Positions 2 through 64,000 of a stretch of 64,000 bases of DNA are shown here, one piece after another. The notes under the pieces were generated by a model. That model ran no database searches and was not told where the DNA came from. It saw only the letters and a list, made by a program, of their open reading frames with translations. The stretch comes from Escherichia phage P479. Positions within the stretch are counted from its first letter, which is position 1. Each line of letters opens with the position of its first letter. The DNA lies in the sequence record MW269952.1; one strand, 5' to 3'. The position numbers and the translations under genes are program-made.

Positions 2-2227
2 ATTGATATTGCTGCTAAGCTGCAGGAAGACGGTGGTGATGAAGTCCCTGAAGAAATCCTGGAAAAAATTGTTTATATGGCTTTCGATTCAGAAGAAGAA
101 ATGCTCCAGCAGTATTTGGTATTCTGGAACGAGAAAACTCCGGTTATGTTAACTGGTTGGAACATTGAGAAGTTTGATATTCCATATATCTACAACCGCC
201 TTAAAAATGTATTTGGTGAAGCTACAGCAAAACGTCTGAGCCCACATCGTCGTACAAAAGTTAAGGTCATTAACAACGGCTTTGGTGAAGAACAAGAAAT
301 CATTCAGATTCTGGGTATCTCTGTTCTGGATTATCTGGACCTGTATAAAAAGTTCAGCTTCACAAACCAACCGTCTTATTCGTTGGATTATGTTGCGGAA
401 TCTGAACTGGGTGTTGGTAAACTCCCGTATGATGGCCCGATTTCTAAACTGCGCGAATCAAATCACCAGCGGTATATTTCTTATAACATCATCGACGTTT
501 ATCGTGTTGTGCAGATTGACCGTAAGCGGCAGTTTATTAACCTGAGTCAGTCAATGGGTTATTATGCAAAGATGCAGATTCAGTCTGTATTCAGCCCAAT
601 CAAAACTTGGGATGCGATTATCTTTAACAGCCTGAAGACTCAAAACAAAGTCATTCCGGAAACCAAATCGCATGTTCGTCAATCGTTCCCTGGTGCATTT
701 GTTAAGGAACCGATTCCAAACGCGTACAAATATGTAATGAGCTGTGACTTAACATCTCTGTATCCGAGCATCATCCGACAGATTAACATCAGTCCAGAAA
801 CGATTGCCGGTTCATTTGCTCCAGCCCAGATGTATGAATACATCGCAGGAACTGCTGACCGTCCATCTGATACATTTAGTTGTGCTCCAAATGGTATGAT
901 GTATTTTAAAGATGTTGCGGGTATTATTCCGACAGAAGTCACCAAGGTGTTTAATCAGCGTAAAGAACACAAAGGCTATATGCTTGCGGCTCAACGTAAT
1001 GGTGAACTGATTAAGGAAGCTCTGCGTAATCCAGGAACTGGTACAACCGAGCCTGAAGTTGATTATCGTTATGACTTTGATGATAATATGAAAACAACCT
1101 TGCATGGTCTGAATCAAACAGTTCTGAATGGTATGTTGTACAAAGCGCAGATGGAAGAAGTTGCAGGCATGACCGCACAGATTAACCGTAAACTACTTAT
1201 CAACAGTTGTTATGGTGCTCTGGGTAATATCTGGTTCCGTTACTTTGACCTGCGAAATGCGACCGCGATTACATCTTTCGGACAACTTGCATTGCAGTGG
1301 ATTGAGCGTAAAGTTAACGAATACTTCGATAGTGTTTGTGGGACAAGCGGCGAAACTTATGTATTCTATGGCGATACTGACTCCATTTATATCCAGTGCG
1401 ATAACCTGATTAAAAAGGTTGGTGGCGAATCTAAATTCCGTGATACAAACCACCTGGTTGACTTCATGGACAAGTTTGCGAAAGACCGTCTGGAACCGGC
1501 AATCGATAAAGCTTTCCGTGAGCTGGCTGAATACATGAACAACAAACAGCACCTTATGTTTATGGACCGTGAAGCGATTGCATGTCCTCCGCTAGGTTCT
1601 AAAGGTGTGGGTGGATTCTGGACGGCGAAGAAGCGTTATGCGCTGAACGTGTACGATATGGAAGGCACACGATATGCTGTTCCGAAACTGAAAATCATGG
1701 GTCTGGAAACTCAAAAGTCGAGTACTCCAAAGGCATGTCAGAAAGCTCTGAAAGAATGTATCCGCCGTATGCTGCAAGAAGGTGAAGAATCTCTGCAGAC
1801 ATACTTCAAGGAATTCAATAAGGAATTTAATGAGCTTAACTACATGACCATCGCTGGTGTATCATCGGTTAACAACATCCAGAAATATAATGAAGGTGGT
1901 TTCCCTGGATTTAAGTGTCCGGCTCATATCAAAGGTGTGCTTGCATATATGCGTGCAACTAAAGGCCTGAAGACTGTTCCACAAATCATGGAAGGGGAAA
2001 AGGTGTATGTACTTCCTCTTAAAGTTGGCAACCCGTTTGGTGAAACCGTGATTGCATGGCCATCAGGGATTGAACTCCCGATTGAAATTCGTGACCAAGT
2101 CCTGCAGTGGATGGACTACAACACACTGTTCCAGAAGACTTTTGTTAAGCCATTAACAGGTTTCTCTGAAGCCGCAAAGGTTGATTACGAAAAGAAAGCA
2201 ACTCTTTTTGACATGTTTGACTTTTAA
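2..2227 (+). CDS. 43: DNA polymerase gp43, family B (5' end outside window)
   Basis: Frame open from the window edge; motifs KLLINSCYGALG and YGDTDSIY; followed by imm/uvsX as in T4. Confidence 0.93.
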   Translation: MDIAAKLQEDGGDEVPEEILEKIVYMAFDSEEEMLQQYLVFWNEKTPVMLTGWNIEKFDIPYIYNRLKNVFGEATAKRLSPHRRTKVKVINNGFGEEQEIIQILGISVLDYLDLYKKFSFTNQPSYSLDYVAESELGVGKLPYDGPISKLRESNHQRYISYNIIDVYRVVQIDRKRQFINLSQSMGYYAKMQIQSVFSPIKTWDAIIFNSLKTQNKVIPETKSHVRQSFPGAFVKEPIPNAYKYVMSCDLTSLYPSIIRQINISPETIAGSFAPAQMYEYIAGTADRPSDTFSCAPNGMMYFKDVAGIIPTEVTKVFNQRKEHKGYMLAAQRNGELIKEALRNPGTGTTEPEVDYRYDFDDNMKTTLHGLNQTVLNGMLYKAQMEEVAGMTAQINRKLLINSCYGALGNIWFRYFDLRNATAITSFGQLALQWIERKVNEYFDSVCGTSGETYVFYGDTDSIYIQCDNLIKKVGGESKFRDTNHLVDFMDKFAKDRLEPAIDKAFRELAEYMNNKQHLMFMDREAIACPPLGSKGVGGFWTAKKRYALNVYDMEGTRYAVPKLKIMGLETQKSSTPKACQKALKECIRRMLQEGEESLQTYFKEFNKEFNELNYMTIAGVSSVNNIQKYNEGGFPGFKCPAHIKGVLAYMRATKGLKTVPQIMEGEKVYVLPLKVGNPFGETVIAWPSGIELPIEIRDQVLQWMDYNTLFQKTFVKPLTGFSEAAKVDYEKKATLFDMFDF

Positions 2228-2296
2228 GTGTTTACAACGGCAATGGATTGCCGTATGATTACCGCATCAACTGATGAATAACTTAAGGATATTAAA

Positions 2297-2539
2297 ATGG
2301 AAACATTAATTGCGGGTACTGTTGTTCTTGGGGCTGGTTCTTTCTTCCTGGCTGCACTGACATATTTTCTGCCGTGGATTATCGCGCTGCTGCGTGGTAC
2401 CAAAAGTAATTGCGGAATCTTCTTTGTTAACCTCCTGTTAGGTTGGACAATGGTCGGATGGTTTATTGCATTTATCTGGGCACTCGTTGCTGAACGTAAA
2501 TCAAACGCACAAGTAATTATCATCAAGGAAGCAAAATGA
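2297..2539 (+). CDS. imm: Superinfection immunity (Imm)-like small membrane protein
   Basis: 80 aa, two TM helices, GW..AFIWAL motif; sits directly after gene 43 as T4 imm does. Confidence 0.6.
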   Translation: METLIAGTVVLGAGSFFLAALTYFLPWIIALLRGTKSNCGIFFVNLLLGWTMVGWFIAFIWALVAERKSNAQVIIIKEAK

Positions 2540-2679
2540 AGATAATTACAATTATTGTACTGATTGCATTTTTTAGTATGTCAATCTACTGGGCAATAAT
2601 GACTCCACATATGATTCCAACTTTAATTTTGGGTTGGGTATTTTTGGGGCTCCAAGCCCGCTATGAATGTTTTAATTAG
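2536..2679 (+). CDS. small membrane protein (47 aa)
   Basis: ATGA overlap with imm stop; hydrophobic; same AGGAAGCAAAATGAA initiation context as the next gene; not in ORF track (<60 aa). Confidence 0.4.
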   Translation: MKIITIIVLIAFFSMSIYWAIMTPHMIPTLILGWVFLGLQARYECFN

Positions 2680-2687
2680 GAAGCAAA

Positions 2688-3191
2688 ATGAAAAAGTTAG
2701 CTATCGCAGCTGTTATGCTGCTATCTGGTTGTGCTTACCAGGGCGATGTTGTTAATGCCAACGAGATTGGTAAAGCGCGAATTGCTGCAGACCGTCAGGT
2801 GCACAATGGTTCCTTTGATTTCAAAGGTGGTACTGGACTTATCTACAAACGCGACAACAATCAATGTGGAAACAACTGCGCGAAATATGCTCAACAAGAA
2901 ATTGAGTACAAACGCGAGCAAGCTGCGAAGCATGACGAAATCATTGCCAAGCTGGAAGCAGAAACCAAGCGACAAAATGACCTGGATACTGTTAACCAGA
3001 TTTCACAGGTCTGCATGTCATACATCAATATGCAGATAAACATCATGCGCGCAGAAGCTTATCAGGCAGCAGAGACGGGTTCTCCAAAAGCTAATGAGTA
3101 CCGCGATATGTATCAGCGTTCTGCTCAAAACCGTCTGAGCTATATTAATAAATGTGTAGCTAAAGAGAAAGCACGCCAAGGTATTAACTAA
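2688..3191 (+). CDS. putative lipoprotein
   Basis: Signal peptide with lipobox LLSGC; RBS-spaced ATG. Confidence 0.6.
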   Translation: MKKLAIAAVMLLSGCAYQGDVVNANEIGKARIAADRQVHNGSFDFKGGTGLIYKRDNNQCGNNCAKYAQQEIEYKREQAAKHDEIIAKLEAETKRQNDLDTVNQISQVCMSYINMQINIMRAEAYQAAETGSPKANEYRDMYQRSAQNRLSYINKCVAKEKARQGIN

Positions 3192-3212
3192 ACAAACTGC
3201 GAGAAGAATATT

Positions 3213-3341
3213 ATGATTGGTATGTTATTGATTAGCCTATGGTTGTTGTCTGCATTTGGTATTGGTTTTATGTACTGGTGGGACAAACGTCAGACCCGGA
3301 AGATTGTTGAACGTGCAATTAATCGTGGATTCAATCGTTAA
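3213..3341 (+). CDS. small membrane protein (42 aa)
   Basis: RBS GAGAAGAATATTATG; single TM helix; below ORF-track cutoff. Confidence 0.35.
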   Translation: MIGMLLISLWLLSAFGIGFMYWWDKRQTRKIVERAINRGFNR

Positions 3342-3420
3342 TTGCTCTGAAAATACAGTGATATAATTATCCTATCTTAAACCTGTGAGAAAAATATAAT
3401 GGTGCCTATGGAAAAAATGA

Positions 3421-4599
3421 ATGTCTATTGCAGATTTGAAATCCCGTTTGATTAAAGCTTCTACATCCAAAATGACCGCGACTCTTACCAAGTCCAAGTT
3501 TTTTAATGATAAAGATGTAGTTCGTACAAAAATCCCGATGCTGAACATTGCAATCAGCGGTGCACTAGATGGTGGTATGCAGTCAGGTTTGACTATTTTT
3601 GCTGGTCCGTCAAAACACTTTAAATCCAATATGGGTTTAACGATGGTCTCTGCATATATGAACAAATACCCCGATGCAATCTGTTTGTTCTATGATTCAG
3701 AATTTGGTATCACAGAAGCATATCTTCGTGCAATGAAAGTTGACCCGGAACGTGTTATCCACACGCCAATCCAGTCGGTTGAACAATTGAAAGTTGATAT
3801 GGTTAACCAGCTTGAAGCAATTGAGCGTGGTGAAAAAGTCATTATCTTTATTGACTCAATCGGTAACATGGCGTCGAAAAAAGAAACAGAAGATGCGATG
3901 AACGAAAAAGTTGTTGGCGATATGACTCGTGCTAAATCCCTGAAATCTCTGTTCCGTATTGTTACTCCATATTTTAGCATCAAGGATATTCCTTGTGTCG
4001 CGGTTAACCATACAATCGAGACGATTGAGATGTACAGTAAAACCGTTATGACCGGCGGTACAGGTGTTATGTATTCCGCGGACACCGTATTCATTATCGG
4101 TAAACGTCAGATTAAAGAAACTGGTAAAGAACTTGAAGGCTTCCAATTTGTTCTGAACGCCGAAAAATCCCGTATGGTCAAAGAGAAAAGTAAATTCTTC
4201 ATTGATGTAAAATTCGATGGGGGTATTGACCCGTATTCTGGCCTGCTTGATATGGCAATGGAAATCGGATTTGTGGTGAAACCAAAAGTTGGTTGGTATA
4301 ACCGTGAATATCTTGATGTTGAGACCGGTGAAATGGTCCGCGAAGAAAAATCATGGCGTGCAAAAGATACTAACTGCACCGAATTCTGGGGCCCGCTGTT
4401 CAAACACGAACCTTTCCGTGATGCAATCAAACGCCATTACCAACTGGGTGCAATCGATAGCAATGCTGTTGTTGATGCCGAAGTTGATGCGCTTATTGCT
4501 TCCAAGGTTGAAAAATACACTGCTCCTGAAGGTAAGACAAAACCGTCCGCTGCAGATATCGAAAACGATTTAGATATGATGGAAGACCTTGATGAATGA
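3421..4599 (+). CDS. uvsX: UvsX RecA-like recombinase
   Basis: 392 aa; N-terminus MSIADLKSRLIKAS and Walker A GPSKHFKS match T4 UvsX; acidic C-terminus. Confidence 0.93.
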   Translation: MSIADLKSRLIKASTSKMTATLTKSKFFNDKDVVRTKIPMLNIAISGALDGGMQSGLTIFAGPSKHFKSNMGLTMVSAYMNKYPDAICLFYDSEFGITEAYLRAMKVDPERVIHTPIQSVEQLKVDMVNQLEAIERGEKVIIFIDSIGNMASKKETEDAMNEKVVGDMTRAKSLKSLFRIVTPYFSIKDIPCVAVNHTIETIEMYSKTVMTGGTGVMYSADTVFIIGKRQIKETGKELEGFQFVLNAEKSRMVKEKSKFFIDVKFDGGIDPYSGLLDMAMEIGFVVKPKVGWYNREYLDVETGEMVREEKSWRAKDTNCTEFWGPLFKHEPFRDAIKRHYQLGAIDSNAVVDAEVDALIASKVEKYTAPEGKTKPSAADIENDLDMMEDLDE

Positions 4600-4933
4600 T
4601 ATCGATTTATCTGATTTAGATAATTTCGAGAAAGATGCGGAGGGAGCTAAGGCTCCTTCTGTACCTTACTACGAAAAAAGTTTGGAGATTATCCGGCAAT
4701 CCATGGGAACTGTGCGACAGGAAATTCTGTTATCACTCCCTGATGGGTCCAGTCACATTGTGTACGTAACCGGAATTAAAATTGAACCATCTGGAAAAGT
4801 TTCAGTTGATTTCGGCACCCCTTCTGAAGACCGCAAAGCGGAGCTTGCAGTGCATGTAGAAAAGTGTGTTACAATGCAAATACAAGATGAAATTGATAAG
4901 ATTAAAATGAAAAAGAGGTGGTGGAAGTGGTAG
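4589..4933 (+). CDS. 40: gp40-like protein (head vertex assembly chaperone in T4)
   Basis: 114 aa between uvsX and 41; assignment by position and size. Confidence 0.5.
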   Translation: MMNDIDLSDLDNFEKDAEGAKAPSVPYYEKSLEIIRQSMGTVRQEILLSLPDGSSHIVYVTGIKIEPSGKVSVDFGTPSEDRKAELAVHVEKCVTMQIQDEIDKIKMKKRWWKW

Positions 4934-6357
4934 AAACTATTTTATCCCAGCTACTCTTTAACAAGGAATATTTTGTTAAAGTCTGGCCATATCTGAATAA
5001 CACATATTTTGAAAAGGGTCCTGCAAAGACCCTTTTTAATACGATTAACGAACACGTAAAAGAATATCAAGCGGTACCAACTAAGACTGCACTTGATATC
5101 GCGCTCGACAGTTCTGACCTTTCTGAAGTCGAATATGAAGGCACAAAGAAACTCTTAGGAGTCCTGGCCGATACACCAGAAGACCAGGAATGGTTGGTTA
5201 AAGAAACCGAGAAGTATGTACAGAAGTCTGCGATGTTCAATGCCACATCCAGGATTATCGAAATCCAGAGTAATGCCGAACTTCCGAAAGACAAACGTGA
5301 TAAACGAATCCCGGATATTGGTGCCATCCCTGACATCATGCGCGATGCATTGTCTATCTGTTTTGACTCTGCTCTGGGCCATGACTGGTTAAACGATTAC
5401 GAAGCTCGATTCCAGACTTATCTGAACAAATCGAAGAAGGTTCCGTTCCGTATTAACATCCTGAATAAAATCACAAAGGGTGGGGTTGAGTACGGTACAG
5501 AGAATGTTTTACTGGCCGGGACGAACGTCGGCAAATCCCTTGGACTTTGTTCGTTAGCCGCTGACTATCTTCAGACTGGTCATAATGTGCTTTATATAAG
5601 CATGGAAATGGCTGAAGAAGTATGTGCCAAACGTATTGATGCCAACTTGCTGGATGTATCTCTGGATGATATTGATGAAGGTCATGTGTCATGGGCAGAA
5701 TACAAAAGTAAGATGGAAAAATGGCGCGCAGCAGGGACTCTTGGGACTCTGAAGATAAAACAATATCCAACTGGTGGTGCTCATGCGGATACCTTCCGCG
5801 CATTATTGAATGAATACAAACTGAAGCAAGGGTTTGTGCCGGATGTGATTATTGTTGACTACCTGGCAATCTGTGCAAGCTCAAGACTGAAAACGTTTAC
5901 CGAAAACAGTTACGGTCTGATTAAGATGGTTGCAGAAGAACTTCGTGGTCTGGCGGTCGAGAAAAATGTGGTCCTGTGGACTGCAGCACAGACAACCAGG
6001 GGTGCGAACGTTGCAGCTGAGATTGATATGGCTGACATTGCAGAATCCTTTGGTATTGCTCACACGGCCGACTTTATGTTGGGTGTTGTTGAGACCGAAG
6101 AATTCGCTCAAATGGGACTACAGTTAATCAAACAACTTAAGTCTCGTTATGGCGATAAGAACTACTATAATAAATTCAAGATGGGTGTTAAGAAAGGTAA
6201 TCAGCGCTGGTACGAGGTTGATGATGATTCAGCTCCTAAACAAGGCTCTACGGTTAAAGAAGCCACTGGTGAGATGAATCGCCAGGCTGAAATGAATAGA
6301 CAAACCAGGGTCAACAGGAGCGACCTGGACGACCTTGCTGCTCAAATGAAATTCTAA
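4918..6357 (+). CDS. 41: gp41 replicative DnaB-like helicase
   Basis: 479 aa; Walker A GTNVGKS; RecA-like core; T4 gp41 is ~475 aa. Confidence 0.92.
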   Translation: MVEVVETILSQLLFNKEYFVKVWPYLNNTYFEKGPAKTLFNTINEHVKEYQAVPTKTALDIALDSSDLSEVEYEGTKKLLGVLADTPEDQEWLVKETEKYVQKSAMFNATSRIIEIQSNAELPKDKRDKRIPDIGAIPDIMRDALSICFDSALGHDWLNDYEARFQTYLNKSKKVPFRINILNKITKGGVEYGTENVLLAGTNVGKSLGLCSLAADYLQTGHNVLYISMEMAEEVCAKRIDANLLDVSLDDIDEGHVSWAEYKSKMEKWRAAGTLGTLKIKQYPTGGAHADTFRALLNEYKLKQGFVPDVIIVDYLAICASSRLKTFTENSYGLIKMVAEELRGLAVEKNVVLWTAAQTTRGANVAAEIDMADIAESFGIAHTADFMLGVVETEEFAQMGLQLIKQLKSRYGDKNYYNKFKMGVKKGNQRWYEVDDDSAPKQGSTVKEATGEMNRQAEMNRQTRVNRSDLDDLAAQMKF

Positions 6358-6376
6358 AGACCTTCGGGTCTTTTTC
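6356..6376 (+). terminator. intrinsic terminator, UUCG tetraloop (after gene 41)
   Basis: AGACC-TTCG-GGTCT then TTTTT. Confidence 0.65.
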
Positions 6377-6384
6377 ATTTTAGA

Positions 6385-6446
6385 GGTTTACATCACCATA
6401 AAAAGGGTGTACTATTATCCCATCAACTACTGATGAGGATAATAAA
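6385..6446 (+). promoter_or_regulatory. early promoter-like cassette, degenerate copy
   Basis: GTTTACA and GGTGTAC then conserved leader CCATCAACTACTGATGAGGATAATAAAATG; -10 spacing atypical. Confidence 0.4.
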
Positions 6447-6695
6447 ATGTTATTAGTTAATGTGCATTACCAGTTCAAATCTGAAGAAGCTCTCCAAAAG
6501 TATGCTGATATTTGTGAGCATAATAAAAGAACAGCTGCCATTGTTGGTCTGAAGCCTTTTAAAATTTTGGATTGCTCCTTGAACAGAGCAAGGCGCTGGT
6601 GTAGTGTTGCCTGTCATGCTTCAGTTGAAGGGAATGATTATTTTTTCATTACTTTCAATGCACAAGATTTTCATTTAATTAATGAATTAAAATAG
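6447..6695 (+). CDS. hypothetical protein (82 aa)
   Basis: ORF preceded by conserved leader CCATCAACTACTGATGAGGATAATAAAATG. Confidence 0.55.
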   Translation: MLLVNVHYQFKSEEALQKYADICEHNKRTAAIVGLKPFKILDCSLNRARRWCSVACHASVEGNDYFFITFNAQDFHLINELK

Positions 6696-6750
6696 TGTAC
6701 AAGCCCCTTGTCTTAGGACATAATGATTTCATATTGAGTTACACAATAAA
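6691..6750 (+). promoter_or_regulatory. early promoter (GTGTACA, 17 bp, CATAAT) plus leader box
   Basis: GTGTACA 6696-6702, CATAAT 6719-6724, box CATATTGAGTTACACAAT. Confidence 0.6.
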
Positions 6751-6773
6751 CCAACTGTTAAAAGGAAAACCAT

Positions 6774-7076
6774 ATGTTTAATCAAACCGACATGAATCGT
6801 TACTATTTTGGACAATTCGCTCGCCGTGATGAAAACTGTGCTGCTCTTATCGCATCAGGCATTCAAACTGGTAAATTAATAAAGCTCAAAAGCGATGTTC
6901 AACCTTCATCTGTTCGCAGCTCTCTTCGTGAATATCTGCTTGCAGGCGGTGAAGTATATGTTATCGCTGAACCTTTTGTTAATGTGTGCGATGATTACAC
7001 AATTAGTGTGACTGTTATGCACCCAACTACTGGGAAAATTCGTTGTCTGACTATGCACAACTATGAGTTGGCATAA
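6774..7076 (+). CDS. hypothetical protein (100 aa)
   Basis: ORF with upstream promoter cassette and RBS AAAGGAAAA. Confidence 0.55.
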   Translation: MFNQTDMNRYYFGQFARRDENCAALIASGIQTGKLIKLKSDVQPSSVRSSLREYLLAGGEVYVIAEPFVNVCDDYTISVTVMHPTTGKIRCLTMHNYELA

Positions 7077-7085
7077 GTGAACAAA

Positions 7086-7137
7086 GGGGCTTACAGCCCC
7101 TTTTTCTTATGTTATAATGACCCTATCAACTACTGGA
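7086..7137 (+). promoter_or_regulatory. stem-loop with embedded -35, then TATAAT and leader box
   Basis: Hairpin GGGGCTTACAGCCCC (CTTACA in loop), TATAAT 7114-7119, box CCTATCAACTACTGGAG. Confidence 0.55.
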
Positions 7138-7144
7138 GAATAAA

Positions 7145-7462
7145 ATGAAAACCATTGATTGCAAGGCAGAATACAAAGTTTATTATCATGGGTCAAGCTC
7201 TAATGCTGGAATCCAAAATATGCTTTGTCCTCCTGATGCAACTGGTGTTCTGTCAGAAGTTGGGCGTAAGAAAAATTTAGGGCGTGTGTTTTTTACTGAA
7301 GATATTGGTTTGGCGCGTATCTATGCAGGAAGAGCAGCTCGCTCATATGGAGGAGAACCCCGTCTTTATCGTGTGATTGCACCTGTTGACGTGGTTTGTT
7401 TAAATGATACTAAAGGCGCAACAGTTTATCATGCTGCCTGGGCGTTTTGTGAGGAAATCTAA
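7145..7462 (+). CDS. hypothetical protein (105 aa) with YHGSS motif
   Basis: ORF with RBS GGAGAATAAAATG; H-G-S near N-terminus plus conserved Y and C-terminal EE. Confidence 0.55.
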   Translation: MKTIDCKAEYKVYYHGSSSNAGIQNMLCPPDATGVLSEVGRKKNLGRVFFTEDIGLARIYAGRAARSYGGEPRLYRVIAPVDVVCLNDTKGATVYHAAWAFCEEI

Positions 7463-10454: not shown

Positions 10455-10651
10455 GAAGGGATTCCGGTAAAGTAACCGATGATGGAATGGATATGTTCCA
10501 TTGTGACCTGGAGTAAGTGTACCCCTTGTGTTGCAGCGATAGGCACAACCAGTAAGTTCCACAGGAAAACATCAAGAGCTAAAAAGCCCATGATGAGCTT
10601 CTTGTCTTTCTTACTGGTTAATTTCCAAATCTGATAGAATAATGTTCCCAT
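10451..10651 (-). CDS. small membrane protein, paralog A (66 aa)
   Basis: Minus-strand ORF; TM helix LWNLLVVPIAATQGVHLLQV; paralog of 10660..10857. Confidence 0.5.
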   Translation of the reverse strand: MGTLFYQIWKLTSKKDKKLIMGFLALDVFLWNLLVVPIAATQGVHLLQVTMEHIHSIIGYFTGIPS

Positions 10652-10659
10652 AGTTCCAC

Positions 10660-10857
10660 CTATATAAGGCCGATTAATGCCAGTGAAACATCTACAACTG
10701 ATTCGAGCGCGACGACTGGTAATATAACACCATGTGCCATTGCAACTGGAGCAACAATGAAGTTCCAGAGTAGAACTAAACAGAGTACCGAAAGGACCAG
10801 AATCGTTCGCTTACGACTGCCTTTGATGGCTTGAATTAGACTAGATAGTTTTAGCAT
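10660..10857 (-). CDS. small membrane protein, paralog B (65 aa)
   Basis: Minus-strand ORF; strong RBS GAAAGGGGGA; late-promoter-like CATAAATA upstream; TM helix LWNFIVAPVAMAHGVILPVV. Confidence 0.55.
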   Translation of the reverse strand: MLKLSSLIQAIKGSRKRTILVLSVLCLVLLWNFIVAPVAMAHGVILPVVALESVVDVSLALIGLI

Positions 10858-10873
10858 ACATCCCCCTTTCTTG

Positions 10874-10881
10874 TATTTATG
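10874..10881 (-). promoter_or_regulatory. late-promoter-like CATAAATA (minus-strand membrane protein pair)
   Basis: 7/8 match to TATAAATA 17 nt upstream of ATG at 10857; strong RBS follows. Confidence 0.4.
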
Positions 10882-10941
10882 CTTTAAACCAATACGATAT
10901 AATTAACATACAAACAACATGAATTGATAAGGAAAAATATA

Positions 10942-11457
10942 ATGGCTCATTTTAATGAATGTTCTCAACTGATTGCTGGTGTTGATAAAGCTCAGGGCGC
11001 TTATGATAATGCAATTTTTGAAGGCACTGACCCACTGCAAGTTATGCTTGATATGCAGAAATCATTGCAGGTTCGTCTGGCTAATGACCGTGATTATTGC
11101 TACCATCCAGATAAATTAGCGACTGCTGGTGATGTTGTTGCTTGGATGCGCGAACAAAAAGACTGCATTGACGATGAATTCCGTGAACTGATTACTTCAT
11201 TGGGTGAAATGTCTAAAGGTGAAAAAGATGCATCTGCTGTCTGGAAAAAATGGAAGGCTCGTTATACTGAAGCGCAAGCTAAACCAATTTCAGAAATGTC
11301 CCCAGAAGACCAGCTTGAAATTAAATTTGAATTAATTGATATCATGCATTTCGTATTCAATATGGCTATTGGTTTGAATATGTCTGCGGAAGAATTGTTC
11401 AAACTGTATTATCTGAAAAATGCCGAGAACTTTGCGAGACAGGACCGTGGCTATTAA
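10942..11457 (+). CDS. 56: gp56-like nucleoside triphosphate pyrophosphatase (dCTPase/dUTPase family)
   Basis: 172 aa from ATG at 10942 (track starts at upstream TTG); all-alpha MazG-like pattern; T4 gp56 is ~171 aa; position between 61 and soc. Confidence 0.7.
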   Translation: MAHFNECSQLIAGVDKAQGAYDNAIFEGTDPLQVMLDMQKSLQVRLANDRDYCYHPDKLATAGDVVAWMREQKDCIDDEFRELITSLGEMSKGEKDASAVWKKWKARYTEAQAKPISEMSPEDQLEIKFELIDIMHFVFNMAIGLNMSAEELFKLYYLKNAENFARQDRGY

Positions 11458-12103
11458 GGCAAGATTTCATAGGACGTATATAATTAAAGTTAAAACGCCG
11501 AAAGGCGTTTTTTGGTATGGTGGTAAACACGAAACCAATGTACTAGACCCATATAAAGACCGATATTCAGGCTCCGGAAAAATACTCTGGAACATATATA
11601 AAAAGTATGGAGTCAAATATCAAATTCGCTGGTTTGTTGGTCACCAGAATAGGGAAATGGCGTTTGAACATGAAAGATATCTAATATCATTATTAAATTC
11701 TAAACATGGTTCAAACTGTATTAATATTTTACCTGGTGGGCAGGGCGGAGGCGGATATGAATGGACTGATGAAATGAAGTTGGCCCAAACACTACGTTTA
11801 AATAAGCCCGAAACTAAAGCTAAAATGAAAAGCGCCCAATGTGTTGCTCAAAATCGCCCTGAACGCAAATCCAGACAATCAAAAGCAATGAGCGAGTTTT
11901 ATGCAAATGGTGGAAATAAAATCGTATCAGAAGCCACATCTAAAGCGCAAAGAACTGCAGCTCATTGGCATGAACCATTGAAAAGTGAAATCTATCAGAT
12001 TTGGCTTTCATTAGGTAAACCCGGTGGAGCTTCTGCTGTGGTTAAAGCACTTAAGGGAAAATACGAAACAACCCCCAGCGCACTTAAACTTTTAATATAT
12101 TAA
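11420..12103 (+). CDS. GIY-YIG homing endonuclease (Seg-like)
   Basis: YIIKVKTPKGVFWYGG ... YSGSGK resembles Seg proteins; start overlaps last 38 nt of gene 56. Confidence 0.65.
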   Translation: MPRTLRDRTVAIKARFHRTYIIKVKTPKGVFWYGGKHETNVLDPYKDRYSGSGKILWNIYKKYGVKYQIRWFVGHQNREMAFEHERYLISLLNSKHGSNCINILPGGQGGGGYEWTDEMKLAQTLRLNKPETKAKMKSAQCVAQNRPERKSRQSKAMSEFYANGGNKIVSEATSKAQRTAAHWHEPLKSEIYQIWLSLGKPGGASAVVKALKGKYETTPSALKLLIY

Positions 12104-13589: not shown

Positions 13590-14068
13590 AAGTATATGAA
13601 TTAGAATTCTATATCCGTGATTCATCCGGCCAAACACGACCTTACGATGCAACAGCCTGTCTTATCATGGTTTACAATGGCATGGATTCGGTTACTGAGT
13701 TGGAAACAAAATTAATGAACCTGACGATGCCAGAAAATGTCACGATGAAGGTATTTCATAACAAAAACGTTAATGTGGCTGAAGGGTGTCCGTTTACTGT
13801 TTCCGAAGCTCTGCATATCAAAGGCTATCGCCACCCGGACCTTTATGGCGAAGATATCATTTTCTATAAAGATAGAGATAAAATGGCCACTGAACGCCTT
13901 AAAGGTCGCACATATCTGATTTCCACTACCGACGACCTTGCTGAAGTTGAACGTCAGATTTGGAAGCACTTTGATATCGGCTTGCGCTTTACTTTAACAG
14001 AAGAAGCTATTCAAGATACTAAAATGCGTGCTCGTATGTATGGTTACGGTCCTATCGGTGGCTACTAA
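13586..14068 (+). CDS. hypothetical protein (160 aa)
   Basis: ORF, ATGA-coupled. Confidence 0.55.
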
Positions 14069-14247
14069 TGGATTTATTTGAACTTTTTGAAGAGCCTAAA
14101 GCTCCCACAGAAGCCCGTGTGGACCTATTTGACGAACTTGATGCGATTATACAGAAGCATGGTTTTAGTCTCCCAATGGAAGTTCTACGCGACCTGGCCT
14201 CATATTACGACGACCCACCTCCATGGGCACCATGGGTGAAACGATGA
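14068..14247 (+). CDS. hypothetical acidic protein (59 aa)
   Basis: TAATG coupling; hand-translated. Confidence 0.35.
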   Translation: MDLFELFEEPKAPTEARVDLFDELDAIIQKHGFSLPMEVLRDLASYYDDPPPWAPWVKR

Positions 14248-14477
14248 ACTGGTTAACAAATATTCCCACATCGGCGCTGGATATCGACCGTAAACACGCT
14301 CATAAGGAAATTGAGCAACAAAAAATTAATCGCTTACAAAGGATTAAGACTGAATCCGAGACAATTAAAGTCAAACGCCCGACAGAATCGAAAAGTTCTT
14401 ACTCATCATATCAATCTCCGATTGGCATGGCCGCAGACATTGCAGTCTTTGGCGTCCCACTTGGAGTATTTAAGTAG
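14244..14477 (+). CDS. hypothetical protein (77 aa)
   Basis: In-frame ATG inside track ORF 14223..14477, coupled by ATGA. Confidence 0.45.
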   Translation: MNWLTNIPTSALDIDRKHAHKEIEQQKINRLQRIKTESETIKVKRPTESKSSYSSYQSPIGMAADIAVFGVPLGVFK

Positions 14478-14533
14478 TTTACTTACTCCCCTCCTAATGA
14501 CATAATGGTCTTTCTTACAACAGAGAGGCCATT

Positions 14534-15094
14534 ATGAACATCATCAAATCTGATACCGAACCCAACCAGTTAAAATTTAGTGAAATGGAGATAGCTTCAT
14601 TATTTGAATGCCGCACATCAAAAGTCGATAAGACCTTGCATTCAAACGTTAACTCAATCATCAAGTCAAGGTTATCTGTACCTGATACAGTCTTGTATCG
14701 TGGGGTTACCCAGCAAGAGATTGATTTGTTAGATGAAGCAAAAGAATCAATGCAACCTTTTGAATTTGGAAGGATAACCTCCTTTACAGAAGACTATGGT
14801 ATTGCCAGGGATTTTGCTGCAATGGAATATGTGTCAAGGACTATCATCAGATTGAATCATACAAAAGCTTTTTGTTACCATGATGCGATGCGCAAAATCG
14901 CGCTTGATGTTCCACTGGAATTCTTCAATACAGCCTCTGGTTCCAAACAGGCAGCAACGTTAAGACGTGAAGAATACATGGACATGATTGATTCTGAGCT
15001 TGAATGGTTTGTTCCAGTTGACCAGAAATTCGTGGTGGTTGATGCTGGATTTGTTGGTGATTATTATGTTCTTGACTGTGTACAAGAGCAATAA
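14534..15094 (+). CDS. ModA/ModB-like ADP-ribosyltransferase (paralog 1)
   Basis: 186 aa; R-S-E triad candidates LYRG, SFT, ELEW; position between soc and dda as T4 modA/modB. Confidence 0.6.
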   Translation: MNIIKSDTEPNQLKFSEMEIASLFECRTSKVDKTLHSNVNSIIKSRLSVPDTVLYRGVTQQEIDLLDEAKESMQPFEFGRITSFTEDYGIARDFAAMEYVSRTIIRLNHTKAFCYHDAMRKIALDVPLEFFNTASGSKQAATLRREEYMDMIDSELEWFVPVDQKFVVVDAGFVGDYYVLDCVQEQ

Positions 15095-18511: not shown

Positions 18512-19187
18512 TGCTATTATTGACTTTGAAACTCTGGGAAACGGCTCGAAGGGAGCCGTTATTGACCTGGCTCTGATTACATTCGAATCTGACCCTGCTA
18601 TTGTAGAATCATTCGAAACTCTGGTTAATCGCGGCAAACGCATTAAGTTCAGCCTTGAATATCAAAAAGGTAAGCGGCTGTTCGACACAACAACTATGGG
18701 TTGGTGGAAAAAGCAATCAGCCGAAGCACGTGTTAACCTGGTCCCTTCTGCGCAAGATGTTGATACTTTAACTGGTATCCAACAGGCGATTGACTATCTG
18801 AATGGTAATGGAATTAACAAATATGAAAGCCTTATGTGGTGTCGTGGAATGTCTTTTGACTTCCCGTTATTTGTTGACCTTATCCGTGACCTGCAGCGCA
18901 ATGAGGGCATTCCCGAGCGTGAATTGAATACCTATAACCTGGAGCCGGTTGTATTCTGGAACCAGCGAGATATCAGAACCGCAATCGAAGCCCTGTCACT
19001 CGTCCGTAAAATGTGTGAAACTCCATTACCAAAGGGGACTTTAGATGGATTCGTGGCACACGATTCGGTGCATGACTGCGCGAAAGATATTTTGATGTTG
19101 AAGTATGCCCAGCGCTATGCTCTTGGTTTAGATGAAGTTCCTTCCGAAGAAGATGCAGACCCATTATCTTTGCCGAAAAAACGATAA
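18504..19187 (+). CDS. dexA: DexA exonuclease A
   Basis: 227 aa (same as T4 DexA); DnaQ-like DFETLG start; follows dda. Confidence 0.85.
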   Translation: MIDAIIDFETLGNGSKGAVIDLALITFESDPAIVESFETLVNRGKRIKFSLEYQKGKRLFDTTTMGWWKKQSAEARVNLVPSAQDVDTLTGIQQAIDYLNGNGINKYESLMWCRGMSFDFPLFVDLIRDLQRNEGIPERELNTYNLEPVVFWNQRDIRTAIEALSLVRKMCETPLPKGTLDGFVAHDSVHDCAKDILMLKYAQRYALGLDEVPSEEDADPLSLPKKR

Positions 19188-19254
19188 AAAGTAGTGTACA
19201 AGGCCAATGGAAAGAGACATAATCATCTCATCAACTACTGATGAGGATAACAAA
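19187..19254 (+). promoter_or_regulatory. early promoter cassette
   Basis: AAAAGTAGTGTACA; CATAAT 19218-19223; box CATCAACTACTGATGAGGATAACAAAATG. Confidence 0.6.
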
Positions 19255-19512
19255 ATGATTACTTCTTTTGAAATTGGCCAACAATATGAAATGTCTGCTC
19301 TTCAAGCTGCTGAAGCAGGTCTGACTAAAGCGTTTGAATGCGCATTTACAAATATTCGTGGTAAAATCTTTACTGTCAATAAAATTGCGGTATATGATAA
19401 AGAAACAGACATGAACAAAGGCATCTACCTGAACGTGTCAAATGCAAAAGGTCGTCGTGAAATTATGGTTGTACAACCTAATCAACTGGCGATGTTCAAT
19501 AAGGTTGCATAA
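19255..19512 (+). CDS. hypothetical protein (85 aa)
   Basis: ATG after conserved leader; track start 19207 lies inside the promoter cassette. Confidence 0.5.
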   Translation: MITSFEIGQQYEMSALQAAEAGLTKAFECAFTNIRGKIFTVNKIAVYDKETDMNKGIYLNVSNAKGRREIMVVQPNQLAMFNKVA

Positions 19513-21981: not shown

Positions 21982-22782
21982 ATGATGATTAATGAAGTAT
22001 TCGGGATAATAAAAAATAAATTTCCTGATTATATTCCACCATCGAGTGGAAATAGTGGGATTTATATAATTTATAATTTAATATCTCAAAAATATTATAT
22101 AGGAAGTTCAAATGATTTTCATCGTAGAATTGCCACGCATTTTCGGAATTTATCCAAAGGTGTTGGCATAAACAGCCATTTACAGTTTGCATATGACAAA
22201 TACGGTAAAGAATCATTTGTATGCGAACTAATAGAAAATATAGAAGTTTATAATAAAAAATATTTCTTGAAAAGAGAAAGTTTCTGGATAACTGAATTAA
22301 ATTCTATCAAAAACGGTTATAATATAACGTTGGCGGATTTTGGTGGTGACACAATGTCCAATCATCCAAGAAAAGCGGAAATTAATTTACTTAAAGGCGA
22401 AGCCGTTAAAAAACGGAATAAACTGTTAGATAAAACCGAATATAATAGAATATATGGAACTGGTGTTAAAAGAAAGCCATACCCCGATGATTTTGGTTAT
22501 AATGTCTCCCTGCGTAAAGCAGGCGAAAATCATCATTTCTTTGGCAAACATCTTTCTCTTGAACACAAAGATAAATTATCAAAATTATTCTCTGGTGGTA
22601 AAAATCCCGAGGCTAAAACGTACTCTATAAATGGGGTCATATTCACAACCCGAAAAGAAGCCGCCGAAGTTCTTGGTATTAGTTATCCTACATTACGAAA
22701 ACGCTGCAAATCCGATGATGTAAAATGGTCCAGTTGGAAATGTTTAGGTTATACTAAAAATTTAGAGGTCAAAAATGATTAA
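21982..22782 (+). CDS. GIY-YIG homing endonuclease (Seg-like)
   Basis: GIYIIYNLISQKYYIGSS; AT-rich; basic C-terminal DNA-binding region; overlaps start of gene 39 by 8 nt. Confidence 0.8.
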   Translation: MMINEVFGIIKNKFPDYIPPSSGNSGIYIIYNLISQKYYIGSSNDFHRRIATHFRNLSKGVGINSHLQFAYDKYGKESFVCELIENIEVYNKKYFLKRESFWITELNSIKNGYNITLADFGGDTMSNHPRKAEINLLKGEAVKKRNKLLDKTEYNRIYGTGVKRKPYPDDFGYNVSLRKAGENHHFFGKHLSLEHKDKLSKLFSGGKNPEAKTYSINGVIFTTRKEAAEVLGISYPTLRKRCKSDDVKWSSWKCLGYTKNLEVKND

Positions 22783-28799: not shown

Positions 28800-29069
28800 A
28801 TGATTAAGCATTTCAATGTGTCAGACCGTGACATCAAAGTTTCAAATCTCCGGGGTCATCATTATGCAGGAATAGTTTACTGCGGTAAGCTCATCAAGCA
28901 TGAAGGTGATGTTCACTATGGTTGGTTGGAATGTGATGAAGTAGTTGTTGGGGAATTCCCTGACCCGGATTCTGATACATTTGATGCTCATGACCGTTTG
29001 TATTATGGCGAGCTTCACATCCGTGGAATCGTCGGTATCGATGAGGTCGTAAATGATTCAGAAGAGTAA
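28800..29069 (+). CDS. hypothetical protein (89 aa)
   Basis: ORF. Confidence 0.5.
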   Translation: MIKHFNVSDRDIKVSNLRGHHYAGIVYCGKLIKHEGDVHYGWLECDEVVVGEFPDPDSDTFDAHDRLYYGELHIRGIVGIDEVVNDSEE

Positions 29070-29646
29070 AACATGGGAGCATCTGAAAAAGATGCCCTCC
29101 TTTCTTTATACAAAGGAAGACTTAAACCCCGAATCCCTGCAGAAGATTGTAGATACTGCCAGGTATTCATTGCGTAAAGACCCAGGTCAGGACCGTGAGC
29201 AAGTCATGCAAAGATGCATGGTTGCTACAATGGCTGAACAAGCTATTGCTAAATGGACCTCCGGTTTTTTATGTGGCGGCGATGAAGATTACGATAATCC
29301 TTACTCCTTTGCATTTGATGTAGTTTCGAAGGAAGGGGTAAGAATCGAAGTCAAGACCCACCAGTCTGGTTCCAAATGGATATCCGTGCATACTGGCCAC
29401 CAGGGCGATTATCCGCATGGTTACGGGATTAATCTTGGGCCATTTATGCAGCACAAGCTTGCTGACCTTATGATTATGCTCGATGTAAAAGAGACTCACA
29501 AAGGTTATAGATTTAAACCAAAATTCCTTGCTGGGCCTGGTGCTTTCGTTCCTGAGTCTGGTCTTGTGCAGAAGTCACAAGGGGATGGTTGGTACCTCCG
29601 TTCTTGTTCAGAAGAAAAATTTCCCTATCACCGGTTTACAAGCTGA
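29053..29646 (+). CDS. putative PD-(D/E)xK-type nuclease (197 aa)
   Basis: FDVVSKEGVRIEVKT resembles a D...E-x-K core; occupies the T4 denB position. Confidence 0.35.
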   Translation: MIQKSKTWEHLKKMPSFLYTKEDLNPESLQKIVDTARYSLRKDPGQDREQVMQRCMVATMAEQAIAKWTSGFLCGGDEDYDNPYSFAFDVVSKEGVRIEVKTHQSGSKWISVHTGHQGDYPHGYGINLGPFMQHKLADLMIMLDVKETHKGYRFKPKFLAGPGAFVPESGLVQKSQGDGWYLRSCSEEKFPYHRFTS

Positions 29647-31370: not shown

Positions 31371-31820
31371 ATGTCTACTTACATGACCCGTCGTGACGTA
31401 CTGAATGCTGGCGCTACTACTGTTGCTTACATCCATAATGGTAATTATGTTGCAGGGCGCCCAACTAAAGAAGCTGTCACTCAACCAGGTTTTTATTTCG
31501 TGGTTAAAGGCGAAGGCGAATCACGTATTGTTGCTGCACGTTTTTATGTTGGTAACCAACGTTCACAACAAGGGTTTGACACTGTATTAAGTCACATCCG
31601 CAAACAACGTTCACAACTGTCGCGCACAATGGCGAACAATGGTGTTATCTATGAAGTCCTGTTTGTTCCAGTTTCTAAAATGAAACCTTTGACAACTGGT
31701 TATGGTAAAGGTCAAATTGCGATGGCGTTCACACGCTCACATAGTTCTGATTGTCAGACCCTTTCAGAAATGAATCGCATGCTTGCTGATAACTTTAAAT
31801 TCATTCTACAGAGCTATTAA
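31371..31820 (+). CDS. ndd: Ndd-like nucleoid disruption protein
   Basis: 149 aa (T4 Ndd ~151 aa); [10 protein letters not shown] and [11 protein letters not shown] recalled as Ndd-like; between rIIB and 52. Confidence 0.5.
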
Positions 31821-52339: not shown

Positions 52340-54115
<1,776 letters not shown>

Positions 54116-54116
<1 letters not shown>

Positions 54117-54313
54117 TGAATATTCGTATAGTAAACAATAGATACGGCACCAATGAGGTGCTGTTTGAAAAAATGAACATAAGTCTCGATGAACTGCCTA
54201 AAGAGAAAACAACGATTTTTGTCCAGGGTAAAGAACTTTATGTTATGCGTGTAATTAAATCGTATGAATATGATGATTTCAATCGGTCTATCTGGTTTAT
54301 TGTCGAGGTATAA
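54116..54313 (+). CDS. hypothetical protein (65 aa)
   Basis: ORF coupled to td stop. Confidence 0.45.
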
Positions 54314-54378
54314 TGAAAATTCAAATTGTCGGTATTTTATTTCTGGCCGTAATGGTCGGGCTTAACTTCCTACTATGA
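54313..54378 (+). CDS. tiny hydrophobic peptide (21 aa), doubtful
   Basis: TAATG and ATGA coupling; hand-translated. Confidence 0.2.
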   Translation: MKIQIVGILFLAVMVGLNFLL

Positions 54379-54674
54379 AAGCCTGTCGGGTTGTTAACAA
54401 ATATCAATCCGACTTTGATGTGAATATTCAACGGGGTACCATGTGGGGAAATCCATATAAAGATGGTACCCGAGAAGAAAACATAAAGAACTTTAAAGAA
54501 TATTTCATAGCAAAGATTAAATCGGGTGAAATCAAAAGAGAACACCTTGAAACTCTCCGCGGAATGCGATTAGCCTGCACATGCAAACCGAAGTCATGTC
54601 ATGGTGATGTTATCGCTTTGGTCGTTAACAAACTTTTCAAAGACACCTTTTCGCTCGAGGATTTGGGTACATAA
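54375..54674 (+). CDS. hypothetical Cys/His-cluster protein (99 aa)
   Basis: WGNPY and CTCKPKSCHGDV; resembles a DUF4326-like family from memory. Confidence 0.45.
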   Translation: MKACRVVNKYQSDFDVNIQRGTMWGNPYKDGTREENIKNFKEYFIAKIKSGEIKREHLETLRGMRLACTCKPKSCHGDVIALVVNKLFKDTFSLEDLGT

Positions 54675-54733
54675 ATACGATTCCGCTTCAGGGCACTGTG
54701 ATATAATTATTTAAAATTTAATGAGAGGAAATT

Positions 54734-54979
54734 ATGAATTTACGATTTAAACGCCAGTCAGGCGAAGTCATTTTTGAAATGCCACAATTTACCGAACAGG
54801 ATTTACCTGCGCCAAATTCTTATATCACTATTGACGGAATCAAATTTCTGGCCAAAAGACATGAACGTGTCTACTGTCATGATTCAGCCGGTGATGTCCA
54901 GTCATATTTTGACATCACTGTCCAGTCAGAAGAAGAATATAATGATGAAATGACTTCGGAACTACCAGAGACAATTTAA
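54734..54979 (+). CDS. hypothetical protein (81 aa)
   Basis: ORF with RBS GAGAGGAAATTATG. Confidence 0.5.
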   Translation: MNLRFKRQSGEVIFEMPQFTEQDLPAPNSYITIDGIKFLAKRHERVYCHDSAGDVQSYFDITVQSEEEYNDEMTSELPETI

Positions 54980-55012
54980 GGTTCCCAACCCTTTTGAACT
55001 ATAGAGGAAAAC

Positions 55013-57268: not shown

Positions 57269-57909
57269 TGAATTATCAAAACATTTATAATAATTTAATA
57301 TCCCGGGGTAAAACCCGGGAACCTTTAACTGAGTATAAAGAGATTCATCATATTATCCCAAGATGTATGGGTGGCACTGATGAAAAGACAAACCTTGTTG
57401 AGTTAACAGGCCGCGAACATTTCATTGCACATTGGCTTCTTACAAAATTTACCAATTCTGCTGGACTTAATCAAGCCTTTGGTATGATGTGTCTTACCAA
57501 TAAAGGTAGACAATACAATGTTTCTTCTAGACTATACGAAATTGGCAGAAAGCTTTTATCGGAGTCTATGACAGGACGAAAAATGTCTGAGGAAACTAAG
57601 AAGAAAATTAGTGAGACTCTTAAAGGAAGAGAATTCACAAAAGAGCATATTGCTCGTATGCGGAAGCCAAAAACTGAAAAAGCCAAAAAGAATATCGCTG
57701 CAGCTAAGGTTGGTGCGCTTAATCCAATGTATGGTACAATATCTCCAACAAGAGATGTTCCACATACAAAAGAAACATGCGAATTGATTTCTTTAAAAAC
57801 CAAACAAGCCACTGATTATCCGCCCTGTCCACATTGTGGTAAAAAGGTCAATAAGGGTAACGCATTGAGATGGCATTATGATAAATGCAAATTTAAGGAC
57901 TTAAAATGA
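57268..57909 (+). CDS. HNH homing endonuclease (MobE-like) with NUMOD3-type repeats
   Basis: EIHHIIPRCMGG..NLVELTGREHFIAHW; repeats GRKMSEETKKKISETLKG; Zn-finger CPHCGKK; wedged between nrdA and nrdB. Confidence 0.8.
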   Translation: MNYQNIYNNLISRGKTREPLTEYKEIHHIIPRCMGGTDEKTNLVELTGREHFIAHWLLTKFTNSAGLNQAFGMMCLTNKGRQYNVSSRLYEIGRKLLSESMTGRKMSEETKKKISETLKGREFTKEHIARMRKPKTEKAKKNIAAAKVGALNPMYGTISPTRDVPHTKETCELISLKTKQATDYPPCPHCGKKVNKGNALRWHYDKCKFKDLK

Positions 57910-59086: not shown

Positions 59087-59107
59087 AAAGGGCTTCGGCC
59101 CTTTTTG
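59087..59107 (+). terminator. intrinsic terminator (after nrdB)
   Basis: AAAGGGC-TTCG-GCCCTTT then TTT. Confidence 0.7.
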
Positions 59108-59110
59108 CCC

Positions 59111-62274: not shown

Positions 62275-64000
<1,726 letters not shown>

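Follow-up and report, generated by a model that had tools for sequence, protein, structure and literature searches.

Asp at the specificity position of the only thymidylate synthase homolog of Escherichia phage P479: a candidate route to 5-methylcytosine in T4-like phages that lack gene 42

INTRODUCTION

The Xanthomonas phage Xp12 and its siphophage relatives PaMx74 and AXL1 fully replace cytosine with 5-methylcytosine (5mC) by means of a dCMP methyltransferase that is a homolog of thymidylate synthase (TS). Expression of the Xp12 TS homolog in E. coli together with T4 gp1, which accepts 5-methyl-dCMP, results in 5-methyl-dCMP formation; Xp12 has no second TS, and its dTMP and dTTP have been proposed to come from deamination of 5-methyl-dC nucleotides (bioRxiv 10.1101/2024.12.05.627091). 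Canonical TS has been given the same activity in the laboratory. A single Asn-to-Asp substitution, N177D in E. coli TS or N229D in L. casei TS, shifts the substrate of an otherwise canonical enzyme from dUMP to dCMP and yields a dCMP methylase that produces 5-methyl-dCMP (1992 studies by Hardy and Nalivaika, Liu and Santi, and Graves, summarized in PMC8670742 and PMC13326640). Here we describe the same substitution, at residue 187, in Td, the sole TS-family protein encoded by a 64,000-nucleotide stretch of the Escherichia phage P479 genome (MW269952.1; hereafter referred to as the window). The phage is a myovirus of the T4 type and falls in Gaprivervirus (genus; VR7/SP18 group).

The absence of gene 42, which encodes the dCMP hydroxymethylase of T4, is already published for Gaprivervirus as an unexplained puzzle, and two reviews infer that some unknown base or enzyme must exist (PMC8056088 and PMC12115623). 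The base itself was still called unknown in 2025 (PMC12115623). These papers, from 2021 and 2025, describe the genus as puzzling and withhold advice for therapeutic use partly for that reason (PMC8056088 and PMC12115623). The puzzle is that every T4 gene that makes cytosine-containing DNA lethal is present, yet no enzyme for a substitute base is found. Asp187 of Td offers a specific, testable answer. The absence of gene 42 is known, and the mechanism proposed here is of a known kind, the Xp12-type TS-homolog dCMP methylase. In the searchable literature, we found no mention of an Asn-to-Asp change in Td as an explanation for Gaprivervirus or for the Acinetobacter phages 133 and ZZ1.

RESULTS AND DISCUSSION

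Td of the P479 window carries Asp at the substrate-specificity position

The window was 95 to 98.5% identical in nucleotide sequence to phages DK-13, SP18, VR20, VR26, and VR7 over the stretches tested, and no record was identical to it. Its relative VR7 (~95% nucleotide identity) was used as a stand-in for the ~106 kb of the P479 genome that lie beyond the 64 kb analyzed.

In TS, Asn177 (E. coli ThyA numbering, used throughout for conserved positions) reads O4 and N3-H of uracil. The corresponding residue in the window is Asp187 of Td, encoded directly downstream of frd:

52678-53259, plus strand: frd, dihydrofolate reductase (DHFR), 65% identical to T4 Frd
53256-54116, plus strand: td, the sole TS-family gene (Pfam Thymidylat_synt PF00303, E=6.5e-91), proposed dCMP methyltransferase (5-methyl-dCMP synthase)
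53814-53816, plus strand: GAC codon of Asp187, which aligns with Asn177 of E. coli ThyA and Asp179 of T4 gp42

The stop codon of frd overlaps the start codon of td (ATGA). Td has 286 amino acids (aa) and is 64.6% identical to T4 Td, and its closest solved structure is that of T4 TS (1TIS, E=2.8e-127). Residues were assigned by aligning Td with E. coli ThyA, T4 Td, and T4 gp42. The ThyA sequence that set the numbering agrees with all published landmark residues (E58, Y94, L143, C146, H147, and N177) and with the expected 264 aa. Td is canonical at R21, E58, W80, Y94, R126/R127, L143, C146, H147, R166, S167, D169, H207, and Y209, and it ends in the canonical TS C-terminus (...APMAV). The TS fold, Cys146, the phosphate-binding arginines, and the C-terminal closure are all present, and Asn177 is not. 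The specificity motif, LPFNIASY in canonical enzymes, reads LPFDIGSY in the window, and a single transition would turn the GAC codon into AAC, which encodes Asn.

Like Xp12, the window has just one TS-family gene, and its product carries Asp177. The companions of the Xp12-type enzyme, DHFR, dCMP deaminase, and NTP pyrophosphohydrolase, are matched by frd, by cd (in VR7), and by gene 56. The Xp12 enzyme is far more diverged, however, with Pro147, Asn143, and a different C-terminus, whereas the window Td shares 65% identity with T4 Td, a genuine phage dTMP synthase, and deviates from canonical TS solely in its specificity residue. Synthases of hydroxymethyl- and hydroxy-dCMP additionally carry Asp or Glu at position 143 (PMC13326640). 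The window has Leu at this position, as does ThyA, and the residue is Asn in Xp12 and Asp in T4 gp42.

Distribution of Asp177 among td homologs

Position 177 was compared across 242 td homologs: 120 related to the window protein, another 118 related to that of phage 133, three reference sequences, and the ZZ1 protein. Asn was found in 226 and Asp in 16. All five Gaprivervirus sequences (the window and P0001 to P0004, mutually 86 to 98% identical) had Asp. The other Asp carriers were P0052, Acinetobacter phage 133 and three of its relatives, five metagenomic proteins, and ZZ1. Unlike the laboratory mutants, which have the identical single substitution, the Asp of the window is thus natural, conserved in Gaprivervirus, and recurrent in Acinetobacter phages.

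The Asp substitution co-occurs with loss of gene 42. Besides Gaprivervirus, the T4-like phages listed as having no known modification enzyme, and no gene 42, yet encoding DenB, Alc, and dCTPase are precisely 133 and ZZ1 (Nikulin 2021, PMC8056088). We found no gene 42 between imm and uvsX of phage 133, which has 56, denB, ndd, and alc, and a single TS-family open reading frame (ORF) in the 150 of its 160 kb that were scanned (94%). A 108-kb metagenomic ZZ1-like contig carries an Asp-type td together with a Pfam ALC gene. Four phages served as Asn controls: T4; Bp7, whose genus, Dhakavirus, is tabulated as positive for hydroxymethylcytosine genes (PMC12115623); Acinetobacter phage Acj9, whose gene 42 status was taken from a statement on its group by Nikulin (PMC8056088); and RB49, which has neither gene 42 nor alc.

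In a neighbor-joining tree, the Asp sequences formed five maximal all-Asp clades, and the nearest neighbor of every Asp sequence likewise had Asp. Because of this pattern, the tree indicates that the Asp state is old and maintained, and that it arose more than once or was transferred. Its conservation in Gaprivervirus and recurrence in Acinetobacter phages therefore imply selection for Asp.

P0052 is encoded on a Logan contig (L006, SRR24146912_91236, gene at 3953-4831), has the motif LPFDIASY, and lies beside frd and gene 32. The contig is 5.4 kb long, and its best phage match covers 12% of it, so that it has no close sequenced relative. Its source, a T4-like phage, is possibly another lineage without gene 42. 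The contigs of P0163 and P0235 were too short or too little syntenic to be informative.

The interval between gene 43 and uvsX lacks the modification cassette

In T4, this interval holds imm.1, imm, 42, the beta-glucosyltransferase gene (beta-gt), and segA. The initial annotation had reported that gene 42 and beta-gt are missing between imm and uvsX of the window and that only an Imm-like protein, a lipoprotein, and two small membrane ORFs are found there. Both absences were borne out, and the ORF layout agrees exactly:

77-2227, plus strand: gene 43 (DNA polymerase), 3'/C-terminal part, a 716-aa ORF; the syntenic gene is annotated as DNA polymerase in VR7, JS98, and T4; the left anchor of the interval
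2297-2539, plus strand: imm, membrane protein for superinfection immunity (identity to Imm of T4 52%, E=3e-24; of VR7 85%; of JS98 68%)
2536-2679, plus strand: 47-aa membrane ORF, "42.1" in the VR7 annotation and orf44 in JS98 (98% VR7, 53% JS98)
2688-3191, plus strand: 167-aa lipoprotein, VR7ORF049c/JS98 orf43 (98% VR7, 52% JS98)
3192-3356, plus strand: junction, the site of the 4.2-kb cassette in JS98 and of 42, beta-gt, and segA in T4
3213-3341, plus strand: 42-aa membrane ORF, 100% aa identity to an unannotated VR7 ORF
3421-4599, plus strand: uvsX, 79% identical to T4 UvsX, the right anchor of the interval

Dhakavirus (JS98), a sister genus, and Mosigvirus (RB69) are nearest relatives, with the same flanks of imm, 47-aa ORF, lipoprotein, small membrane ORF, and uvsX. 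JS98 differs from the window by a cassette of ~4.2 kb that separates its lipoprotein gene from its small membrane ORF and that the window lacks; the td of the Dhakavirus Bp7 has Asn177. In JS98, the cassette runs from orf42 to orf38, includes a gene 42 homolog (orf39), a kinase, a sugar isomerase, and a glycosyltransferase, and is homologous to the RB69 cassette. The RB69 cassette makes arabinosyl-5-hydroxycytosine (PMC13326640). By blastn against JS98, window positions 1900-2980 aligned, up to the lipoprotein gene, as did positions 3357-3698, starting 63 nt upstream of uvsX, and no alignment to JS98 was found between these two blocks, across the junction at 3192-3356. With the alignment lost where the lipoprotein gene ends and regained only 63 nt before uvsX, the entire JS98-type cassette is cleanly missing from the window. 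In the JS98 record (3070-7244), the only labels given to the genes of the cassette are hypothetical protein, thymidylate kinase, and phosphoheptose isomerase. Since orf39 is a "hypothetical protein" there, keyword searches for gene 42 would miss it.

Some of the small ORFs of the interval have counterparts beyond VR7. The 47-aa ORF has a 57% match in T4, where it falls between imm and 42 in DNA that bears no annotation. The lipoprotein has the lipobox MKKLAIAAVMLLSGC (LLSGC), and its likeness to T4 Imm.1 is confined to the signal peptide. The 42-aa ORF has a partial homolog in JS98 just upstream of uvsX, and it differs from its VR7 counterpart by four synonymous and no nonsynonymous changes. 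It is probably a real gene because its protein is 100% conserved in VR7 despite these four changes.

Genes for T4-type cytosine modification were not found elsewhere

The initial annotation had called for a search of the rest of the genome for gene 42, the glucosyltransferase genes, and cd. No gene 42, alpha-glucosyltransferase gene (a-gt), or beta-gt turned up in the window or in the VR7 genome, and cd was found in VR7. When T4 gp42, beta-glucosyltransferase, alpha-glucosyltransferase, Dam, and Arn were compared with the six frames of the window by tblastn, nothing scored better than E=0.4, and Arn had no match at E<=1e-3. Searches with an HMM of the TS family and, by phmmer, with T4 gp42 detected no gp42-like ORF in the window and VR7 2552-146072, where td was the sole TS-family ORF; the part of VR7 outside these positions is the equivalent of the window itself. 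The window and VR7 likewise contained no ThyX motif and no second TS. The VR7 annotation lists a-gt.2 to a-gt.5 and has neither a-gt nor gene 42. The genes for gp1 (dNMP kinase) and Cd are present in VR7 at sites outside the window equivalent. Finally, dam was not present between 61 and 56 (10455-10941), its position in T4.

Genes directed against cytosine-containing DNA are retained

DenB of T4 is a dC-specific single-stranded DNA nuclease, and T4 Alc blocks transcription of cytosine-containing DNA. Homologs of these and related T4 proteins are encoded in the window:

10942-11457, plus strand: gene 56 homolog (dCTPase/dUTPase, MazG-like), 77% identical to T4 gp56, 171 aa, E=4e-91
29053-29646, plus strand: denB homolog (endonuclease IV), 45.5%, 178 aa, E=2e-51
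31371-31820, plus strand: ndd homolog, 61%, E=3e-60
59105-59521, plus strand: denA homolog (endonuclease II), 71%, E=1e-66
60973-61476, plus strand: alc homolog, 55%, 166 aa, E=1e-60

The gp56-like protein, the Ndd-like protein, and the nuclease in the denB position had been recognized in the initial annotation, and their retention is confirmed by identities of 77, 61, and 45.5% to the T4 proteins. The accompanying suggestion that these functions may have been repurposed is unnecessary; the T4 roles fit if cytosine is replaced by another route. The ratio of nonsynonymous to synonymous substitution rates (dN/dS) against VR7 was determined for the T4-type exclusion genes 56 (0.12), denA (0.06), and alc (0.12), with denB left out, and for td (0.05). 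By these ratios, the four are working genes under purifying selection, not relics. The dS of gene 56 against VR7 was 0.85, compared with 0.08 to 0.27 for td, frd, denA, alc, and uvsX, which suggests mosaic exchange of gene 56.

The window resembles T4 in that the homologs of gp56, DenA, DenB, Ndd, Alc, Frd, and Td occur in T4 gene order, with gp1 and Cd encoded in VR7. It also resembles T4 in its logic, in which dCTP is excluded and cytosine-containing DNA is destroyed or silenced. It differs from T4 in lacking gp42, both glucosyltransferases, Arn, and Dam; the proposed modifier is Td and the proposed modification a methyl group. T4 tolerates cytosine in its DNA only if it carries mutations in each of 42, 56, denB, and alc (PMC1635256). 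By the logic of that genotype, loss of gene 42 with 56, denB, and alc left intact should be suicidal for a phage whose DNA has no protection; a T4 of this genotype is unable to grow with cytosine DNA.

Restriction analysis of VR7 points the same way. Its DNA was reported to contain "modified cytosines" and to be unglycosylated (PMC6326788, Suppl. Fig. S4). The digests were made with enzymes sensitive to methylation or to glycosylation, both after treatment with T4 beta-glucosyltransferase and without it (PMC6326788). VR7 was thereby set apart from VR5 and T4, which were glycosylated, from T4(147), which was hydroxymethylated, and from VpaE1, which was unmodified (PMC6326788).

Upstream of alc, the window contains a partial tandem duplication of this gene (60729-60827; 33 aa, 64% identical to the N-terminus of T4 Alc). 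Its VR7 counterpart is VR7ORF243c, annotated "similar to Alc."

A proposed pathway to 5-methylcytosine

We consider it probable that gene 42 and the glucosyltransferase genes are absent because cytosine is replaced by a route through Td-Asp187, and not because the phage uses plain cytosine. By analogy with Xp12, the genome probably contains 5mC. In such a pathway, gp56 would hydrolyze dCTP and dCDP to dCMP, as in T4. Td-Asp187 would take this dCMP and, with methylene-tetrahydrofolate as donor, would form 5-methyl-dCMP by reductive methylation, while Frd, translationally coupled to td, would recycle the dihydrofolate. The gp1 dNMP kinase (present in VR7) and the NDP kinase of the host would then convert 5-methyl-dCMP to the triphosphate, and gp43 would incorporate 5mC instead of cytosine. 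T4 gp1 is known to accept 5-methyl-dCMP, as in the Xp12 co-expression (bioRxiv 10.1101/2024.12.05.627091). DenA, DenB, Ndd, and Alc would attack or silence cytosine-containing host DNA and leave phage DNA unharmed. The dTMP needed could be supplied by Cd through deamination of 5-methyl-dC nucleotides, by host ThyA, or by breakdown of host DNA. We infer the substrate and product of Td, the identity of the base, and the source of dTMP from the gene content, the conserved Asp substitution, its co-occurrence with loss of gene 42, and the purifying selection described above.

A broader claim joins several of these points. Gaprivervirus and, independently, phages 133 and ZZ1 with their metagenomic relatives would have acquired 5mC genomes through a one-codon Asn-to-Asp change, so that Td takes the place of both gp42 and Td. 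Thymidylate would be made by deamination of 5-methyl-dC, and gp56, DenA, DenB, and Alc would discriminate C from 5mC. We regard this combined claim as evenly balanced.

Several points weigh against the 5mC pathway. The data on P479 itself are sequence data, with VR7 standing in for the other ~106 kb, and the VR7 restriction results were described as "modified," not "5-methyl" (PMC6326788). For ZZ1 and for the final 6% of phage 133, the absence of gene 42 was taken from the literature. The rule that distinguishes methyl from hydroxymethyl products by residue 143 is only partly validated, since Xp12 has Asn at that position and not a bulky hydrophobic residue. His147 is usually changed in TS homologs from contigs of modified DNA (PMC8670742), and the window Td keeps it. 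Because His147 is retained, Td might still have substantial activity on dUMP. McrBC, McrA, and Mrr would be expected to attack a genome in which all cytosine is 5mC, and no homolog of Arn, an inhibitor of McrBC, was found in the window. The pathway would also require that Alc and DenB spare 5mC DNA. Finally, one Biquartavirus, Aeromonas phage avDM14-QBC (L017), pairs an Asn-type td with a weak Alc-like ORF: its td (11219-12058) has Asn177, and the Alc-like ORF (13995-14534) is 33% identical over 69% of the query. We counted this phage neither as support nor as a counterexample.

Alternative explanations

Td-Asp187 could act on dCMP and yet make unglycosylated 5-hydroxymethyl- or 5-hydroxy-dCMP, in which case it would be a strict replacement for gene 42. 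Every natural dCMP hydroxymethylase or hydroxylase has Asp177, the modified DNA of VR7 bears no glycosylation (PMC6326788), and sister genera use 5-hydroxymethylcytosine or 5-hydroxycytosine chemistry. The window enzyme, however, has Leu at position 143 where synthases of these products carry Asp or Glu, its C-terminus and His147 are those of an intact TS, it is 65% identical to T4 Td, and frd has been kept and is coupled to td. Furthermore, after treatment with T4 beta-glucosyltransferase, the restriction analysis in the BREX paper called T4(147) "hydroxymethylated" and VR7 only "modified" (PMC6326788). We judge such a product to be unlikely.

Modified cytosine could also arise from an unrecognized enzyme encoded elsewhere, or from modification at the DNA level, with Asp187 either incidental or broadening the specificity of Td. 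There is room for such an enzyme among the many Gaprivervirus ORFs without a Pfam match (for example, VR7ORF134c, 135c, 149c, 232c, and 239c), but Pfam scans of genus-specific ORFs gave no enzyme-like candidate. VR7ORF148c is a T5orf172/MUG113 domain protein, VR7ORF136c contains DUF7275/DUF7277, and 21982-22782 of the window, the counterpart of the "unique" VR7ORF006c, encodes a GIY-YIG/I-TevI-like homing endonuclease. VR7ORF147c (19064-19489), annotated as similar to a cytidine/dCMP deaminase, has no H/C-A-E motif, no P-C-x-x-C motif, and no Pfam match, and this annotation looks spurious. An incidental change would not be expected to recur, as Asp does, in unrelated Acinetobacter lineages with the same genotype, lacking gene 42 and positive for Alc and DenB. 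A post-replicative route would in addition be left without dCTP for DNA synthesis by an active dCTPase. Taken together, these points make an unrecognized source of modification quite improbable.

The initial annotation had concluded that cytosine is probably unmodified, as in RB49-like phages. The window does share with Krischvirus RB49 the lack of gene 42 and of glucosyltransferase genes as well as the retention of denA and a gp56 homolog. It differs in having alc, denB, and ndd, all three of which are tabulated as missing from Krischvirus (Table 4 of PMC12115623); RB49 represents the genuine pattern of a T4-like phage with unmodified cytosine. In RB49, no alc was found between rnlA and pseT.3, and td has Asn177 in the motif LPFNVASY, unlike LPFDIGSY of the window. 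A plain-cytosine genome, in which gp56 (for example, as a pure dUTPase), Ndd, DenB, and Alc would be repurposed and Td-Asp187 would still make dTMP, agrees with the missing gene 42, alpha-gt, and beta-gt and with the existence of RB49-like phages, but it is very improbable given the modified cytosines of VR7 (PMC6326788), the need in T4 to knock out 56, denB, and alc where gp56 is here 77% identical and purifying selection acts on 56, denA, and alc, and the Asn177 of RB49, a phage without alc, and of the 226 td homologs in all that carry Asn. That earlier interpretation was largely wrong.

Implications of the proposed 5-methylcytosine genome

If the 5mC pathway operates as proposed, methyl would be a third cytosine chemistry of T4-like phages, beside hydroxymethyl and hydroxy, and a single transition would have re-routed a natural nucleotide pathway. 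The window and its relatives would differ from Xp12 in being T4-like myoviruses with DenA, DenB, Ndd, and Alc, with 5mC predicted here from genes, and the question would arise by what means C and 5mC are distinguished by Alc and DenB. These phages, which are therapeutic candidates, would be predicted to be sensitive to McrBC-, McrA-, and Mrr-type defenses, and the behavior of Gaprivervirus DNA in sequencing and cloning would become predictable. Phage genes annotated as "thymidylate synthase" merit a check of position 177.

Other features of the window

The window is oriented opposite to the T4 map. Its left end has the order gene 43, imm, uvsX, 40, 41, 61, 56. The middle contains rIIA and rIIB, denB, ndd, and 52, followed by minus-strand tail-fiber genes, and the right part contains rnh, 59, 32, frd, td, nrdA, nrdB, denA, rnlA, alc, and pseT.

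The homing endonuclease at 21982-22782 (266 aa) lies directly upstream of gene 39 and has GIY-YIG, NUMOD3, and I-TevI DNA-binding domains by Pfam. The gap between nrdA and nrdB holds an ORF for a MobB-like HNH endonuclease (57268-57909; 49% identical to the N-terminus of T4 MobB), and a second MobB-like fragment lies beside pseT at the very end of the window (63843-63998, minus strand). The gap between td and nrdA (54116-55012, ~900 nt) contains three small ORFs of 65, 99, and 81 aa, the middle one Cys/His-rich; the same gap in VR7 is only 131 nt long.

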